A stretch of 64,000 nucleotides of DNA from Naegleria gruberi (taxonomy: Eukaryota): the NCBI GenBank assembly GCA_000004985.1, contig GG738879.1, one strand, 5' to 3'. Under the pieces are notes generated by a model, which was given only the letters and a program-made list of their open reading frames with translations, was not told the DNA's origin and ran no database searches. The stretch's first letter is position 1; every line of letters begins with the position of its first letter. Positions 23,364-41,055 of this stretch are shown here, piece after piece. A program made the translations under genes and the position numbers.

Positions 23364-23434
23364 TAGGAAGACAGGGAATCGAACCCTGATCTTAGGAACC
23401 ACAATCCCATGTTCTACCACTGAACTATCTCCCT
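23364..23434 (-). tRNA. tRNA-His (anticodon GUG), 71 nt, discriminator A73, position 1 is A (A1:U72).
   Basis: Minus-strand sequence: AGGGAGA-TA-GTTC-AGTGGTA-GAAC-A-TGGGA-TTGTGGT-TCCTA-AGAT-CAGGG-TTCGATT-CCCTG-TCTTCCT-A. A and B boxes are present. A T5 terminator follows immediately downstream. Confidence 0.85.
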
Positions 23435-28741: not shown

Positions 28742-28814
28742 CGCCCACCGTGGGGGTCGAACCCACGACCACAAGGTTAAGAGCCTTGCGCTCTACCGAC
28801 TGAGCTAGACGGGC
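28742..28814 (-). tRNA. tRNA-Lys (anticodon CUU), 73 nt.
   Basis: Minus-strand sequence: GCCCGTC-TA-GCTC-AGTCGGTA-GAGC-G-CAAGG-CTCTTAA-CCTTG-TGGTC-GTGGG-TTCGACC-CCCAC-GGTGGGC-G. It is near-identical in body to metazoan tRNA-Lys-CTT. A T-run lies downstream. Confidence 0.9.
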
Positions 28815-36010: not shown

Positions 36011-37257
36011 TTATTCATCATCATCGTCAATGATCTTATTCTTCTTTTTGGAGACAGATTGCTTGGCTGGAGCTTTCTTTGGTTCTTGTTTGGTTTTCTT
36101 TGGAGGTGGCTTTTTCTTAACTTCTTCTTCAGAGCTGCTTTCTTCTTCAGAACTGCTTTCCTTCTTTTTTCTCTTCTTTGATTTATTGTCCACTTCTTCT
36201 TCACTGGAGGATTCTTCGCTTGAAGATTCATCACTACTGGAGGATTCCTCATCATCATCCAAAAGTTTCTTCTTCTTGGCAGGAGCCTTTTTTTTAGTGG
36301 TTTTCTTTGTGGTCTTTTTCTTTCCATCATCTTCTGACTTGACCTTTTTTCTTGATTTCTTTTGTTTGAGTTCTTCTTCCTCTTTCTTTAATAAATCTTC
36401 TGGAATGTTTGATTTGATAAGGTTAGCAATCTCTGTATTACCTTGACGTTCGGCCAAAATGTAGGATGATAAGCCCCATGCATCTTTGGACATTAAGAAT
36501 TCTGGAGATTTATCTGCGTCAATTAAGGCCTGTACAACTTCCTTGTATCCCCACAAGGCAGCCATATGCAAAGTTGTTCTCTTACACTAGTATAATATTG
36601 TTAATGAAAAATTATACATATCAAATTACTTACTGATGCATGAACATTAAGTTTAGCTCCAATCTTGACAAGATAATTAACAATATCGACATTTCCAAAT
36701 CTGCAAGCTTGTAAAATTGCAGACCATCCATCAGTATCTCTAAGAGAAATTACTTCACTATCTCCTTTGGATTTTACAATATTTTTGACTTTATCCAAAT
36801 CCCCTAATTCACCTGCAGCTTTGAAAAGAATCCTCATATCCTTGTCATTAATTTTTGATGTTGTCTTGTCGACTGGGTATGGGCAAATACTAGCATTTTC
36901 CGAATCGGCTGCTTTCTTCTTTCCACTTTTTGGCTTCTTTGCTGTTGTTTTCCTAGTGGTTTTTTTCTTTTTCTTTTTATCATCATCAGAAAAATCGTAT
37001 TCCTCGGATGATTCTACTACATCATCTGAAGATGAATCTGCTTCATCATCATCAGAATCATCGGATTCATCCTTCTTTTTAGCTGGTGACTTTTTTGTTT
37101 TTTTTTCTTCCTTCTTGACTGGTTGTCTTTTTGCTGTTCTTGATCTCACAGGTGTTTTTATGACTCCATCTTCTTCTGCCTCTTCTTTTAGTTTTGGTTT
37201 AAAAAGAGTAGAAGGTTTTGATGGTGAAGCTTGAACAAGATCTCCTAACGTTGCCAT
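36011..37257 (-). CDS. Ankyrin-repeat protein with long K/E/S/D-rich (Nopp140/nucleolin-like) tracts; two exons, about 399 aa.
   Basis: Exons on the minus strand are 37257..36634 and 36586..36011, with a 47-nt GTAAGT...ACTAG intron; phase checked. ANK repeats include GWSAILQACRFGNVDIVNYLVKIGAKLNVHAS and RTTLHMAALWGYKEVVQALIDA. Confidence 0.7.
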
Positions 37258-37407
37258 TTTTTTTGAATTTTCTTTTTTTTTGGCGCGAACTTTTATTGTT
37301 ACCTAGGTGCTGTTTTAGTTTCAATTATTGCATAATACCACGCAGCTTTCCATTTGTACTATTCAGTTATTCTTCAGAAGTGTTTCTCCTAAATCATTGA
37401 TTTGACC

Positions 37408-38865
37408 CTAAACTGTTTCAACCTTTTCTTTCACTTGAGCCTCAGCAGTGGCTTCCTTAAGAACTTGATCCTGAGTTGTTAGTGAGGAACTATTCCAAGG
37501 TTTGTGTTCAATGAGAATCCAACTGGTACAGCATATGGATACGACAATGCACACACTTGCAATCAAACCAATAACTCCAAATAATAACAATTGAAATCCA
37601 ACATTGGTGTAATAGTTAGAGTTTTGAGATGAAGGTTCCGAGAGAGAAACCTTTGATTCATCTCTATTCGTATAACAAATATATTCCTTCTCTTCTACAT
37701 ATTGACTCGAGTAGGTGTAGCACGTGCTTGTGAGAAGACTTCTTGTTTTTGCTGTTCTGGCTTGGGTGGATTGGTTGGTTGAGTTTTGATCTGAACTGTC
37801 CCTTAGAAATGAGGGAAATGTAACTTTGAATAAGGTTCCTGTCAAATCCCCATCTGAATTGCATTTACTCCTCCCAACTACAAAACAAGGAAATCTTGTG
37901 AAAATAAGTGAATTTGCATCTGAATCTGTTGAGCTTTCGAATTTTGACGATTGTAAATAATACGTTCCGACTGAAATTAATGGTATTGGGAATGAAAGAA
38001 GGAAACAGCTAATTATCAATGTGGAAACAATAATGCATATCAAAATCTTGTCCACCTTTTTAGAGCATTTCTTGATGAAATAAAAACAGTTCGATATTGA
38101 TGATGGTGGTTTAACGTCATTGACAGTTGTTTGAATTTCCACAACTGTAAATTGAAAATCCTCAACTCTATTTGTTGTTGAAATGGTTGGTGAGGCAGTT
38201 TCCTCTTTGATTTTAAAAGTTAAAGAAGGAGATGATGGTGATATCAGGCCACCACTCTCAGTAATTATTGGTTCTATTTTTCGTTGCATGATGTGGTGAT
38301 GGTGTTGAGTAGTTTTTTCTTGATTTGTTTCATATTGTGATAGAGATAGTGAGGTATTAGTTTGGAAGGTAGTATTATTATTAATAAGTTTTACCTGAGT
38401 GCGAGAAGAAGGGTTTCGGAAACTTTGATTGTCCTCAGTGAGCAAAAATTGTTGAGGTGCTGTTGGCGCATTTTCTTCTTGGTCCACTAACAACGATGAA
38501 ACTATTATTGGACAATTATTTGAATTGATTTCATCAGCTGATTGGAGGTTTTGTAATATTTCCGATGAGGATGATTTAGAAGGATTTTCAAAGTCTTGAG
38601 TATGGTATGATTCACTGGTGTTTGAATGATTGTTTGATACAACTTGGTGTTGCTCTTCTTCATTTTGTTGTGGTTGTTGCTCATGATTAAGAGAGATTAA
38701 AGATTGAGATGTGGTAATGCTGCTACTAGTATTATTGTTGTTATTGGTCAATCCTTCCTCCTCCATTATTTGCGAGAGAATGAGTTTCTCCAATTTATTT
38801 TCGTCTATAGTGTTCGACATTTTCAAATAATAGGAAAGTGATCCAACTATATCTCTAGAGTCCAT
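37408..38865 (-). CDS. Hypothetical membrane protein, about 485 aa. The N-terminal half is N/S/T/Q-rich. There are two predicted TM helices.
   Basis: Real ATG is at 38865 (MDSRDIVGS); the track's start is a TTG. TM segments are ILICIIVSTLIISCFLLSF and LLLFGVIGLIASVCIVVSICC. Confidence 0.5.
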   Translation of the reverse strand: MDSRDIVGSLSYYLKMSNTIDENKLEKLILSQIMEEEGLTNNNNNTSSSITTSQSLISLNHEQQPQQNEEEQHQVVSNNHSNTSESYHTQDFENPSKSSSSEILQNLQSADEINSNNCPIIVSSLLVDQEENAPTAPQQFLLTEDNQSFRNPSSRTQVKLINNNTTFQTNTSLSLSQYETNQEKTTQHHHHIMQRKIEPIITESGGLISPSSPSLTFKIKEETASPTISTTNRVEDFQFTVVEIQTTVNDVKPPSSISNCFYFIKKCSKKVDKILICIIVSTLIISCFLLSFPIPLISVGTYYLQSSKFESSTDSDANSLIFTRFPCFVVGRSKCNSDGDLTGTLFKVTFPSFLRDSSDQNSTNQSTQARTAKTRSLLTSTCYTYSSQYVEEKEYICYTNRDESKVSLSEPSSQNSNYYTNVGFQLLLFGVIGLIASVCIVVSICCTSWILIEHKPWNSSSLTTQDQVLKEATAEAQVKEKVETV

Positions 38866-39125
38866 CTTTGCAGCAAAGAGATGGAAAGGTTTGAGTTGGT
38901 TTTTTTTCAAAGATGGATTTTTCTCTTTTACGAAATTGTTTCATAAATGTAGTAGTAATTGGCGCCACTTTCAACAAGGCGAAAGAAGAATGACTACAAT
39001 CAGCCTTAAAATTACACTTCACGAATCCAATAGTCATGGTTATTAGAATAAATACTTTGCAACTCTTGATTATCATTAATGTTTCGATATCAGACTAGTT
39101 GCCTATTTTTAAGACATTAATGTGA

Positions 39126-39197
39126 GTGCGCTTAGCTCAGAGGAAGAGCATCGGACTTCGAATCCGAGGGTCGTGGGTTCGAACCCCATAGTGCATA
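39126..39197 (+). tRNA. tRNA-Arg (anticodon UCG), copy 1.
   Basis: Sequence: GTGCGCT-TA-GCTC-AGAGGAA-GAGC-A-TCGGA-CTTCGAA-TCCGA-GGGTC-GTGGG-TTCGAAC-CCCAT-AGTGCAT-A. The acceptor has 5 Watson-Crick and 2 G:U pairs. The B box is GGTTCGAACC. A T5 terminator lies 6 nt downstream. Confidence 0.8.
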
Positions 39198-39789
39198 AAT
39201 CCTTTTTATTCTTTTACTATTTTCATTTCAATTTCACTTTTTAGATCTTTAAACTTTCTATATCTTCAAATTCGAATATTACTCTACCTAAATATGAAAT
39301 TTCACCCTCCATATCTAAGAATGTATAGAGAACGAGCTGTTCTAAATTATTTAGCTTGAATTTTTCTTTGAGGATTATAATTTACTTTTTTTTACATTGT
39401 TAACATTCAATTACGCAGATTGGTTGTTAAACGATAATACTTTATTAAAATTGGAATCCCAATTAATTCTAAAAAATGTCCTTGTTTTTCCATTAACAAC
39501 ACTCTTTGAAAACTCAACAAGTTCAGCACTCTCCTTCAATCCATGTTCAATAATTTCCGATCTGACATACTTGAAAACGATTAACCTGAGTTCAGAACAT
39601 TTCTTCACGGCAGCAGTCCCTTATTAATAGGTGAATTTGTTTTGGAGATTGATCAATTCTTGTTTCTTCCTTCTCTTCAAAGGCTTGCTTCTAATAGCAT
39701 TGTTTGAAACAATAGACAACTTACAACAATTGAAAAATTGTTTCCTGTCTGAAGGTGTAGTAAAATGAAAACATTTCAAATCAAAAAAA

Positions 39790-40563
39790 ATGTCGGAACG
39801 TAAAGTCCTCAACAAGTACTACAATCCAGAAATGTGGGACAGTAAAATCCCAAAACGAAAAATTCCAAAGAATAACCAGACCAAGATTAGGAATATGGTT
39901 GCAATGACCATTCAGTGTACAGTTTGTGGTGAGTATATCTTTTCAGCCAAAAAGTTAAATTCAAGAAAGGAGGTTATTGAAGGTGATGAATATTTGGGAA
40001 TGAAGAATTGTCGTTTCTATTTTCGTTGTACACGATGTGCCAGTGAATTGACTTTAAAAACTGATTATGAACACGATAGATATGTTTGCGAACATAATTG
40101 CAAGTCTATTCATGATCGTTCGGAAGGCATTGCAAAACAAGAGGATAAAAAACAAGAGGATAATGTTGAGGACGAAATGAATGCATTGGAGAAAAAGGCA
40201 ATTTCTTCTAGAGAATATCAAGAGGATATTGATCAATTGGAGGAAATTAAGGAAATAAATTCTCAGAGAGAGGCCATCTCAAATCAATCTTTGGCAAGAA
40301 AGGAAAGCAAAAGAGAAGAATCTTTCAAGTTTACCTCAAAAGAAGAGGATGAATTGTTAGAGTTCGTGGAGTACCAATCCAAATTGGGAAGACGTAAATT
40401 TCAAGGTGATGAAGACATTGAGATACTTTCAAAAATTGATGACAATATTTCCTCTGAAAAATCATTCATTTCAGAAATTCAAGAAATTTCAATGCAACCA
40501 AAAAAGAAAAGAAAGCAAAAAAGGTCAACTAAGGATAAAATTAGCCTTAATATTGATTATTAA
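39790..40563 (+). CDS. YJU2/CCDC94 (Cwc16) family splicing-factor homologue, 257 aa.
   Basis: The N-terminus is MSERKVLNKYYNPEMWDSKIPKRK. The zinc-finger-like segment is MTIQCTVCGEYIF...RFYFRCTRCASELTLKTDYEHDRY. The C-terminus is acidic and coiled. Confidence 0.8.
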   Translation: MSERKVLNKYYNPEMWDSKIPKRKIPKNNQTKIRNMVAMTIQCTVCGEYIFSAKKLNSRKEVIEGDEYLGMKNCRFYFRCTRCASELTLKTDYEHDRYVCEHNCKSIHDRSEGIAKQEDKKQEDNVEDEMNALEKKAISSREYQEDIDQLEEIKEINSQREAISNQSLARKESKREESFKFTSKEEDELLEFVEYQSKLGRRKFQGDEDIEILSKIDDNISSEKSFISEIQEISMQPKKKRKQKRSTKDKISLNIDY

Positions 40564-40664
40564 AATTAAAAATACATATTAAACAAATCATTCAAGGTTT
40601 AAATCTTTGGAATTACTTATAAAGCATCCTGCTTAATTAATTTCAAACAAATAAAAAAAGAATT

Positions 40665-40736
40665 TACAGACAATGGGGCTCGAACCCACGACCCTCGGAT
40701 TCGAAGTCCGATGCTCTTCCTCTGAGCTATGCCTGC
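40665..40736 (-). tRNA. tRNA-Arg (anticodon UCG), copy 2 (different acceptor stem).
   Basis: Minus-strand sequence: GCAGGCA-TA-GCTC-AGAGGAA-GAGC-A-TCGGA-CTTCGAA-TCCGA-GGGTC-GTGGG-TTCGAGC-CCCAT-TGTCTGT-A. A T7 terminator lies downstream. Confidence 0.8.
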
Positions 40737-41055
40737 TACGATTAATAGTTTAAATATTCTAAAATCTTTCATGATACATATTAAGGTATGGATTTAAAAT
40801 TTTAAATGCAGCATATAACTTCCATATTAGAGAACATCCTTAAATTACCCTTTATCTCTCCTTAATAAATGCCATTGCTTCCATATGGTGGAACTGCGTG
40901 CATGTTATCCAATACTTGAAAAAAACAATAAGGTGATCAATCCTTTAAATCTACAGCAACCATTACGATTCTTCAAAAGGTTCATTATTGCTCTAAAATT
41001 TTGTTGTCAACAAATTGTTGAAAACATTTTCCACCCATACAACAATCATTTGGAA

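Follow-up and report, generated by a model that had tools for sequence, protein, structure and literature searches.

Two convergent tRNA-Arg(UCG) genes, here called gene A and gene B, lie on either side of the splicing-factor gene YJU2 in Naegleria gruberi NEG-M nuclear DNA. Judged from their sequences, they are probably independent, functional Pol III genes for cytosolic isodecoders, in which selection and probable internal gene conversion have kept a common body while the acceptor stems co-evolved separately within each copy. This is ordinary tRNA gene-family evolution, and no new kind of element is involved.

The tRNA-Arg(UCG) genes and the YJU2 locus

The window (the whole stretch of DNA analysed, 64 kb) carries four tRNA genes as detected by ARAGORN. 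The two tRNA-Arg genes and the gene between them are as follows.

39126-39197, plus strand: tRNA-Arg(UCG) gene A, 72 nt (ARAGORN; Rfam RF00005, 66.5 bits; cloverleaf -22.6 kcal/mol)
39790-40563, plus strand: YJU2/CWC16 splicing-factor gene NAEGRDRAFT_69590 (Saf4/Yju2, PF04502; identical to N. gruberi XP_002675189.1)
40665-40736, minus strand: tRNA-Arg(UCG) gene B, 72 nt (ARAGORN; Rfam RF00005, 67.1 bits; cloverleaf -22.6 kcal/mol)

An earlier sequence-only reading of this DNA had proposed a convergent tRNA-Arg(UCG) pair bracketing YJU2 and had suggested a check with a tRNA finder. ARAGORN and Rfam RF00005 (gathering score 29) each call tRNA-Arg(TCG) at both loci and place the genes on the plus and minus strands, and the ORF between them encodes a Saf4/Yju2 protein (PF04502), as had been proposed. 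The Rfam scores of genes A and B are 0.6 bits apart and equal those of the tRNA-His and tRNA-Lys genes of the window, and both genes form the RF00005 cloverleaf with stems of 7, 4, 5 and 5 bp.

The anticodon TCG at positions 34-36, U33 and the 7-nt anticodon loop CTTCGAA are alike in genes A and B, and direct reading finds the tertiary nucleotides U8, A14, G15:C48, G18G19, C13:G22-G46 and T54T55C56..A58 in both. Arginine identity in tRNA is set by A20, C35, G/U36 and A/G73. Both genes carry A20 (from the D loop AGAGGAA), C35, G36 and the discriminator A73, and CCA is encoded in neither. Their D arm, UAGCUCAG..GAGC, is of a type found in bacterial tRNA-Arg and presumably also resembles the eukaryotic tRNA-Lys type; given this D arm, an isotype model may disagree with the assignment.

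Sister-strain contigs (ERR1078381) cover 39584-40606 (L001/L002) and 36870-38531 (L129/L130); these are probably transcripts, and all end short of both tRNA genes.

Pol III signals and flanking sequences

Both genes have the internal promoter boxes of type-2 Pol III genes, a terminator and an AT-rich upstream motif, located by direct reading.

39105-39112, plus strand: AT-rich upstream motif of gene A, ATTTTTAA, at -21 to -14
39133-39143, plus strand: A box of gene A, tRNA positions 8-19, TAGCTCAGAGG; the gene B copy at 40729-40719 is identical
39176-39186, plus strand: B box of gene A, positions 52-62, GGTTCGAACCC
39203-39207, plus strand: Pol III terminator of gene A, T5 run, 5 nt downstream
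40653-40659, minus strand: Pol III terminator of gene B, T7 run (A7 on the plus strand), 5 nt downstream
40686-40676, minus strand: B box of gene B, GGTTCGAGCCC, differing from that of gene A at an unconstrained B-box position
40750-40757, minus strand: AT-rich upstream motif of gene B, ATATTTAA, at -21 to -14

The B box, GGTTCGA(A/G)CCC, is a perfect consensus in both genes, and the trailers read AATCCTTTTT and AATTCTTTTTTT. Upstream of the tRNA-Lys gene is ATTTTTAG, the counterpart of ATTTTTAA and ATATTTAA. Because gene B and tRNA-Lys both have counterparts, the motif is a shared tRNA-gene motif and not the scar of a duplication. Identity over this upstream region is 14/21 between genes A and B and 13/21 between gene B and tRNA-Lys, and the flanks are otherwise unrelated. 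A 103-nt inverted repeat (83%) was considered as a possible duplication scar and rejected: it consists of the tRNA, the AT-rich motif and the terminator, the last two of which are also found at tRNA-Lys. A scan for bacterial-type promoters and terminators, a method unsuited to Pol III genes, was uninformative for this locus.

Differences between the genes are concentrated in the acceptor stem

Over positions 8-65 genes A and B are identical save for A59, which is replaced by G59 in gene B. The acceptor stems read GUGCGCU/AGUGCAU in gene A and GCAGGCA/UGUCUGU in gene B, and both observations agree with the sequence-only reading. That reading, however, counted five differing acceptor pairs, and the correct number is four of seven (2:71, 3:70, 4:69 and 7:66), with 1:72, 5:68 and 6:67 the same in both genes (G1:U72, G5:U68 and C6:G67). 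It was right that every change is compensated, which is true on both sides of all four pairs, and that G1:U72, G5:U68 and G49:U65 are common to the two genes.

The concentration of these differences is statistically marked. Eight of the nine nucleotide differences fall within the 14 acceptor nucleotides (hypergeometric P = 2e-6), and all four changed pairs, out of 21 stem pairs, are in the acceptor stem (P = 0.006), with no change among the 14 other pairs. The tract of identity stops exactly at the junction of acceptor stem and body on both sides.

Each acceptor stem is paired at all seven positions, with equal duplex energies, and exchanging the 3' strands between genes A and B lowers the number of pairs to 5/7 or 3/7. 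In trials on this window, two 7-mers taken at this spacing formed seven consecutive pairs by chance about 0.2% of the time. With equal scores and energies, 7-bp stems and intact boxes and terminators in both genes, the compensated differences therefore imply that pairing was maintained. The proposal that the stem structure is under selection in two diverged isodecoders thus stands with respect to pairing (equal scores, perfect stems, intact boxes and terminators), but it leaves unexplained why the 14 other stem pairs are unchanged. We would also like to note that C4:G69 to G4:C69 and U7:A66 to A7:U66, which make up two of the four changes, flip the pair and have no wobble intermediate; gradual drift accounts for such flips no better than would a very old divergence or a separate origin for one of the stems.

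Selection, gene conversion and the origin of the stems

In the account that we favor, gene A and gene B would each use their own A and B boxes for TFIIIC, their own AT-rich upstream motif and their own oligo-T terminator, and the transcripts would presumably be processed by RNase P and RNase Z, given CCA, and charged by ArgRS via A20, C35, G36 and A73. The acceptor-stem sequence is probably not among the known Arg identity elements. The body from 8 to 65, which would house the promoter, the tertiary core and the identity set, is likely held constant by selection, and probably also by occasional gene conversion between the copies, which have 57 nt in common and are separated by 1.5 kb. The acceptor strands are at the extreme ends of the gene beside unrelated flanks, and a conversion tract that took in only one strand would break the stem, so that only internal tracts would survive and each copy would retain its own co-adapted stem; each stem would then have drifted by compensatory substitutions. 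On the simplest view, the placement of the pair around YJU2 would be a by-product of a local event, either inverted duplication or insertion, in a genome that is compact.

The part played by conversion, which we consider probable, is inferred from one tRNA-His proxy, as no other tRNA-Arg(UCG) gene of N. gruberi or of another Naegleria was retrieved. Between the tRNA-His genes of N. gruberi and N. lovaniensis (one pair, of putative orthology), 13 of 71 nt differ, and changes occur in every one of the four stems (acceptor, D, anticodon and T), which shows that tRNA bodies do change in Naegleria. Body differences number 9/57 nt in this comparison, which serves as a proxy only, and 1/58 nt between the Arg genes within N. 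gruberi. Acceptor changes stand in a different ratio to body changes in the tRNA-His comparison, again one putative orthologue pair, than in the Arg pair (Fisher P = 0.011). As a separate observation, a homology of 57 nt is short for efficient conversion.

A possible but less probable explanation is purifying selection alone, without gene conversion: the genes would be old duplicates in which every body position is constrained by the promoter, tertiary structure, modification or ArgRS, and the acceptor stem need only pair. A constraint that follows structural domains would place the ends of the identity tract just where they are, at the acceptor/body junction on both sides. The D and T arms are overlaid by the A and B boxes, the one change within the body (A59G) is at a B-box position that is not constrained, and the fully diverged neutral flanks suggest an old split. 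Nevertheless, the D, anticodon and T stems of tRNA-His also vary between N. gruberi and N. lovaniensis, so these stems are changeable in the genus, and the anticodon stem lies outside the promoter boxes, yet 0/5 of its pairs have changed compared to 4/7 in the acceptor stem.

We consider it improbable that one copy is a chimera, having received its acceptor stem from elsewhere by recombination with another tRNA gene or by retro-insertion of a different Arg(UCG) lineage, with the bodies either already alike or homogenised later. Such an origin would account for the two transversion flips, for which a G:U intermediate is impossible, and for an acceptor-stem divergence (8/14 nt) that is near that of the unrelated flanks. 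In contrast, the stems share G1:U72, G5:U68 and C6:G67, and two wobble pairs are unlikely to coincide in unrelated stems; no donor stem was found, and neither tRNA-His nor tRNA-Lys of the window carries either stem.

Database searches and possible significance

Exact searches of JGI metagenomes with body positions 8-48, allowing any base at 34, yielded no matches. The 22-nt anticodon arm matched at least 120 contigs there, and all those listed are bacterial-type tRNA-Arg(TCG/ACG) genes of about 77 nt, with no Naegleria relatives among the matches listed. The Naegleria-specific combination of D arm and anticodon arm had no matches in GTDB genomes or IMG/VR, and a looser scan of GTDB genomes retrieved one, in a Polyangiaceae MAG. 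None of the three collections, GTDB genomes, IMG/VR or JGI metagenomes, contains the form with the short D loop. In the literature searched, we found nothing specific to Naegleria nuclear tRNA genes.

A more adventurous reading, which seems to us very unlikely, is that the acceptor stems may be functional barcodes on an otherwise identical tRNA and that the whole Naegleria Arg(UCG) family may descend from a bacterial-type tRNA-Arg acquired by the nucleus. The bacterial descent is suggested because of a 42-nt identity with a myxobacterial tRNA-Arg. If the barcode reading were true, G1:U72 and G5:U68 would share one role and the four variable pairs would direct the fates of the isodecoders, for which mitochondrial import, processing, stability and fragment production are candidates.

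The value of the pair lies mainly in the annotation of a published N. gruberi locus, whose two tRNA genes appear to be bona fide tRNA-Arg(UCG) isodecoders. They also provide a clean, small example of a tRNA gene whose two ends co-evolve while the interior is fixed. If the pattern were found genome-wide in Naegleria tRNA families, it would offer a natural system for separating gene conversion from selection, and functional differences between acceptor-stem isodecoders could be tested. By itself the pair opens no long-standing question and has little import beyond annotation.

Synteny, insulation and pseudogene status

The sequence-only reading called it unusual for two tRNA genes to lie inverted about a Pol II gene and suggested that this arrangement could act as a boundary. 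Nothing shows the arrangement to be unusual or to act as an insulator. The genome is compact and the 64-kb window alone has four tRNA genes, so a short gene with tRNA genes beside it should be a frequent occurrence. tDNA barriers operate in yeasts and human cells, examples being the budding-yeast HMR tRNA-Thr and human tDNA insulators. By analogy, TFIIIC/TFIIIB binding might turn the convergent pair into a paired insulator or chromatin boundary around YJU2 and so account for its maintenance, although we give this even less credence than the barcode reading. The idea draws on the perfect B boxes (TFIIIC sites) of both genes, on the barrier activity of fission-yeast tDNAs (PMC2040200) and on the position of gene B, which ends about 59 nt past the apparent 3' end of the YJU2 transcript and could block read-through. 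Against it, the density of tRNA genes and the shortness of the genes in the window make such flanking expected by chance, the boundary idea does not predict the acceptor-stem difference, and the syntenic block retrieved from N. lovaniensis and another Naegleria species is without any tRNA. A TFIIIC-binding B box is common to every tRNA gene and so does not discriminate with regard to an insulator role.

We compared neighbouring genes in related species. At the Trm732 orthologue loci of N. lovaniensis and of a Logan Naegleria species, PIG-S, PTPA and Trm732 remain together, with no YJU2/tRNA block and no tRNA. The SAMDC orthologue loci of N. fowleri, N. lovaniensis and Willaertia contain one tRNA-His and no tRNA-Arg. 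These SAMDC and Trm732 neighbourhoods total 114 kb and include neither YJU2 nor tRNA-Arg; the orthologous YJU2 locus lies outside this set. A protein search for a YJU2 orthologue in Naegleria and Willaertia retrieved none besides that of the sister strain (97%).

Least credible of all, and largely refuted, is that either gene is a pseudogene or a copied body whose flanks resemble an acceptor stem by chance: two G:U pairs per stem, including the uncommon G1:U72, would fit this, but acceptor-stem G:U pairs also occur in the tRNA-Lys and tRNA-His genes of the window (tRNA-His has a weak A1:U72), the scores are as high as theirs, cloverleaf energies are equal, terminators are at the same offset, and both stems pair at 7/7, with a chance of about 0.002 per copy. 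Only two copies are present in the window at three or fewer mismatches, a number unlike that of a tRNA-derived repeat, and no further tRNA-like remnants were found within 36-44 kb. The sequence-only reading saw no retroelement next to either copy, and Pfam indeed gave no reverse-transcriptase or integrase match for the ORFs on the flanks; an exact look-up of the spurious ORF overlapping gene B returned nothing.

Comparison with known systems

Gene A matches the Polyangiaceae MAG tRNA-Arg(TCG) at every nucleotide of positions 8-15 and 22-63, and the 22-nt anticodon arm is common to at least 120 bacterial-type metagenome tRNA-Arg genes. The Naegleria genes depart from the bacterial ones in the size of the D loop (7 nt rather than 9 nt), in acceptor stems rich in AU and GU, in lacking an encoded CCA and in having Pol III oligo-T terminators.

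A tRNA barrier has been described at centromere 1 of S. pombe (PMC2040200). What the Naegleria pair has in common with tDNA barriers and insulators is a Pol II gene placed between intact tDNAs that carry B boxes, but this resemblance is positional only.

Intergenic conversion among S. pombe serine tRNA genes was reportedly described by Amstutz and colleagues in 1985. [quoted passage not shown] 2016, PMC4981973). Similar to such families, the Naegleria paralogues are near-identical with unrelated flanks; in contrast to concerted families, their homogeneity ends at the acceptor stem, and conversion here is inferred.

Isodecoders are common in eukaryotes (Goodenbour & Pan 2006, PMC1693877). Like other eukaryotic isodecoder genes, genes A and B are two nuclear Pol III genes that share an anticodon, obey the structure rules and have compensated stem changes. 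They differ in that the changes are almost solely in one stem (4/7 acceptor pairs and 0/14 others), and where the isodecoder examples in PMC1693877 differ by one or a few nucleotides, the Naegleria pattern is more lopsided.

Anatomy of the tRNA-Arg pair

ARAGORN detected four tRNA genes in the window, two of them tRNA-Arg(TCG), and the Rfam tRNA model scores both Arg genes level with tRNA-His and tRNA-Lys.

Features of the window
23364-23434 (23.4 kb), minus strand: tRNA-His(GUG), ARAGORN; Rfam 69.2 bits
28.7 kb: tRNA-Lys, ARAGORN; Rfam 66.4 bits
37411-38865: ORF identical to XP_002675265.1 (N. gruberi NEG-M RefSeq)
39126-39197, plus strand: tRNA-Arg(TCG), gene A, ARAGORN; Rfam 66.5 bits
39790-40563: YJU2, identical to XP_002675189.1 of N. 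gruberi NEG-M; Saf4/Yju2 protein, PF04502, between the two tRNA-Arg genes
40665-40736, minus strand: tRNA-Arg(TCG), gene B, ARAGORN; Rfam 67.1 bits
46193-52327, minus strand: Trm732/THADA homologue, 2044 aa
52427-58171: TPR/ankyrin/MYND gene, 1914 aa
60753-62570: PIG-S, identical to XP_002675191.1 (N. gruberi NEG-M RefSeq)

The sequence-only reading had described a convergent tRNA-Arg(UCG) pair around YJU2 with no retroelement beside either copy. Both points held, as ARAGORN and Rfam place the genes on opposite strands with the PF04502 ORF between them, and no retroelement domains were found in the ORFs adjoining the pair. No third tRNA-Arg copy was found in the window at up to 3 mismatches, and no tRNA-like remnant within 36-44 kb. 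G+C in the window is 32-37% and long ORFs are tightly packed. Trm732 is the partner of the Trm7 tRNA 2'-O-methyltransferase; its homologue lies 5.5 kb from gene B, which is probably a coincidence, and its RefSeq model (1848 aa) is shorter than the uninterrupted ORF (2044 aa).

In both Arg genes the canonical tertiary nucleotides (U8, A14, G15:C48, G18G19, C13:G22-G46, T54-A58) are present, the D loop is 7 nt long and carries A20, the variable loop is 5 nt, the anticodon loop reads CUUCGAA, the discriminator is A73, and the A and B boxes are perfect. CCA is encoded in neither gene, and the 3' trailers read AATCCTTTTT and AATTCTTTTTTT. The cloverleaf energy is the same for both (-22.6 kcal/mol), with acceptor duplex energies of -7.8 and -7.7 kcal/mol; when folding is left unconstrained, the minimum-energy structure retains the acceptor and D stems and rearranges the other two arms. 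Genes A and B are both intact tRNA-Arg(UCG) genes, each with its own Pol III signals, and identification as a pseudogene or repeat element was rejected.

Differences are concentrated in the acceptor stem

Compared base by base, the two genes differ at nine of 72 nt: four in the 5' acceptor strand (positions 2, 3, 4, and 7), four in the 3' acceptor strand (66, 69, 70, and 71), and A59/G59 in the T loop, a free B-box position. The changed acceptor pairs number four (U2:A71 vs C2:G71, G3:C70 vs A3:U70, C4:G69 vs G4:C69, and U7:A66 vs A7:U66), not five as previously counted. Apart from this miscount the original observation is real: all four changes are compensated, the bodies (positions 8-65) are otherwise identical, and G1:U72, G5:U68, and G49:U65 are shared, as is C6:G67. 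The 14 acceptor positions hold eight of the nine differences (P = 2e-6), and all four changed pairs, of 21 stem pairs, lie in that stem (P = 0.006). If the two genes traded 3' strands, 5/7 or 3/7 pairs would remain. The possibility that one copy is the body of the other with flanks mis-assigned as an acceptor stem was ruled out, since two 7-mers placed at random in the window with acceptor spacing form all seven pairs, Watson-Crick or G:U, only about 0.2% of the time.

Flanking sequences and the intervening gene

An inverted repeat of 103 nt (83%) that reaches past both Arg genes was detected, and 14 of the 21 nt upstream of genes A and B are identical (P about 7e-4 when compared with AT-rich 21-mers taken from the window). 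A duplication scar was rejected as the source of this similarity because gene B and tRNA-Lys are likewise identical at 13/21 and tRNA-Lys carries the same motif, AT(T/A)TTTA(A/G), present at -21 to -14 in three of the four tRNA genes (39105-39112 for gene A, 40750-40757 for gene B, and upstream of tRNA-Lys at 28814). The similarity reflects a common upstream element and terminator, beyond which the flanks are unrelated. We regard the motif as a possible upstream element for Pol III in Naegleria. All four tRNA genes have A at -1.

Two sister-strain contigs of run ERR1078381 (L001 and L002) align at 39584-40606 with 96.6% identity, both stopping at 40606, 59 nt short of gene B. They are most likely YJU2 transcripts, in which case both tRNA genes would fall outside the mRNA. 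Coinciding contig ends in two assemblies and a 61-nt segment upstream of YJU2 that is absent from L002 suggest that this run's contigs derive from transcripts and that a 5'-UTR intron may be present. The run (ENA ERZ929261, labelled metagenome) holds a close N. gruberi relative, 96.6% identical around YJU2 vs 99.3-99.4% 1-3 kb away; two further contigs (L129 and L130) align at 36870-38531. The closest protein match to YJU2 is the sister-strain protein (97%), the next being only 38-45% identical, from animals and fungi. No orthologue from N. fowleri, N. lovaniensis, or Willaertia is among the best 120 protein matches, although SAMDC of these organisms is 70-81% identical. Their YJU2 is either unannotated or very divergent.

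The arrangement around a Pol II gene had also been called unusual and a possible insulator. Transfer RNA genes can act as barriers (PMC2040200), and the sole barrier-relevant feature of the Arg pair is the B box, present in every tRNA gene. Given that this compact genome has four tRNA genes within the 64-kb window, a short gene between two of them is unremarkable, and a boundary-element role is unsupported.

Comparison with other Naegleria loci and with bacterial tRNAs

The SAMDC and Trm732 orthologue regions of N. fowleri, N. lovaniensis, Willaertia magna, and another Naegleria species cover 114 kb and contain a single tRNA-His and no other tRNA gene; tRNA density differs sharply, at 4 per 64 kb in the N. 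gruberi window vs 1 in the sampled 114 kb. The PIG-S, PTPA, and Trm732 block is syntenic, but the YJU2/tRNA segment does not adjoin it in the compared species. The order PIG-S, PTPA, a roughly 310-aa ORF, and Trm732 recurs in N. lovaniensis and the Logan Naegleria species (window 46-62 kb vs L126 and L127). Relative to these two, N. gruberi has the 1914-aa gene as an extra insertion before Trm732, and a different gene set after Trm732, including YJU2 and both tRNA-Arg genes.

The N. gruberi and N. lovaniensis (L004 15779-15849) tRNA-His genes differ at 13 of 71 nt, spread over all four stems (two acceptor pairs, two anticodon-stem pairs, one T-stem pair, one D-stem position, and some loop positions) and mostly compensated, with A1:U72 and G4:U69 kept in both. 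Non-acceptor stems do change in Naegleria. Against this pattern, the eight acceptor changes and one body change of the Arg pair are unusual (Fisher P = 0.011), in a comparison with a single tRNA-His pair that may not be orthologous, its neighbouring genes being different. The N. gruberi tRNA-His(GUG) has A1:U72, G4:U69, and A73, and G-1 is not encoded (position -1 is A).

Another Naegleria tRNA-Arg(UCG) gene was not obtained by any route (metagenome, GTDB, IMG/VR, or syntenic loci). The exact Arg body was absent from JGI metagenomes, and the Naegleria-specific short-D-loop form from GTDB genomes, IMG/VR, and JGI metagenomes. The anticodon arm alone (22 nt) matched at least 120 metagenome contigs, the matches listed all being bacterial-type tRNA-Arg(TCG/ACG). 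Arg positions 8-15 and 22-63 (a 42-nt run) are identical to a myxobacterial tRNA-Arg(TCG) (window 39133-39188 vs 3080-3154 of L128, a Polyangiaceae MAG). The D arm appears to follow the bacterial Arg pattern instead of the GUGGC form of eukaryotic tRNA-Arg. Ancestry, convergence, or transfer might account for this likeness, which we treat as a lead and not a finding because the match was selected for 37-nt identity and tRNA bodies converge easily.

Origin of the acceptor-only divergence

We infer that the body was kept constant by selection on the promoter, tertiary core, and identity nucleotides, with gene conversion between two nearby copies probably contributing. tRNA families have generally been described as undergoing concerted evolution or rapid birth and death (PMC4981973). 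The acceptor strands lie at opposite gene ends beside non-homologous flanks, and a conversion tract over one strand alone would break the stem and be removed, which would explain why pair 7:66 is the precise limit of identity. A strong competing explanation is purifying selection without conversion. Two of the four changed pairs are flips without a wobble intermediate, which suggests that the copies diverged long ago or that one stem arose separately. G1:U72 and G5:U68, present in both stems, argue for their common ancestry and perhaps for a constraint. Weak or wobble acceptor pairs seem ordinary in N. gruberi, since G5:U68 also occurs in tRNA-Lys, and G4:U69 and A1:U72 in tRNA-His.

As an evolutionary curiosity, the acceptor-only divergence is neat but minor. 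Every feature of a nuclear tRNA-Arg(UCG) gene that could be checked appears in both copies, and judging from sequence the pair is ordinary: two apparently functional tRNA genes in a published genome, fitting the definition of isodecoder genes (PMC1693877).
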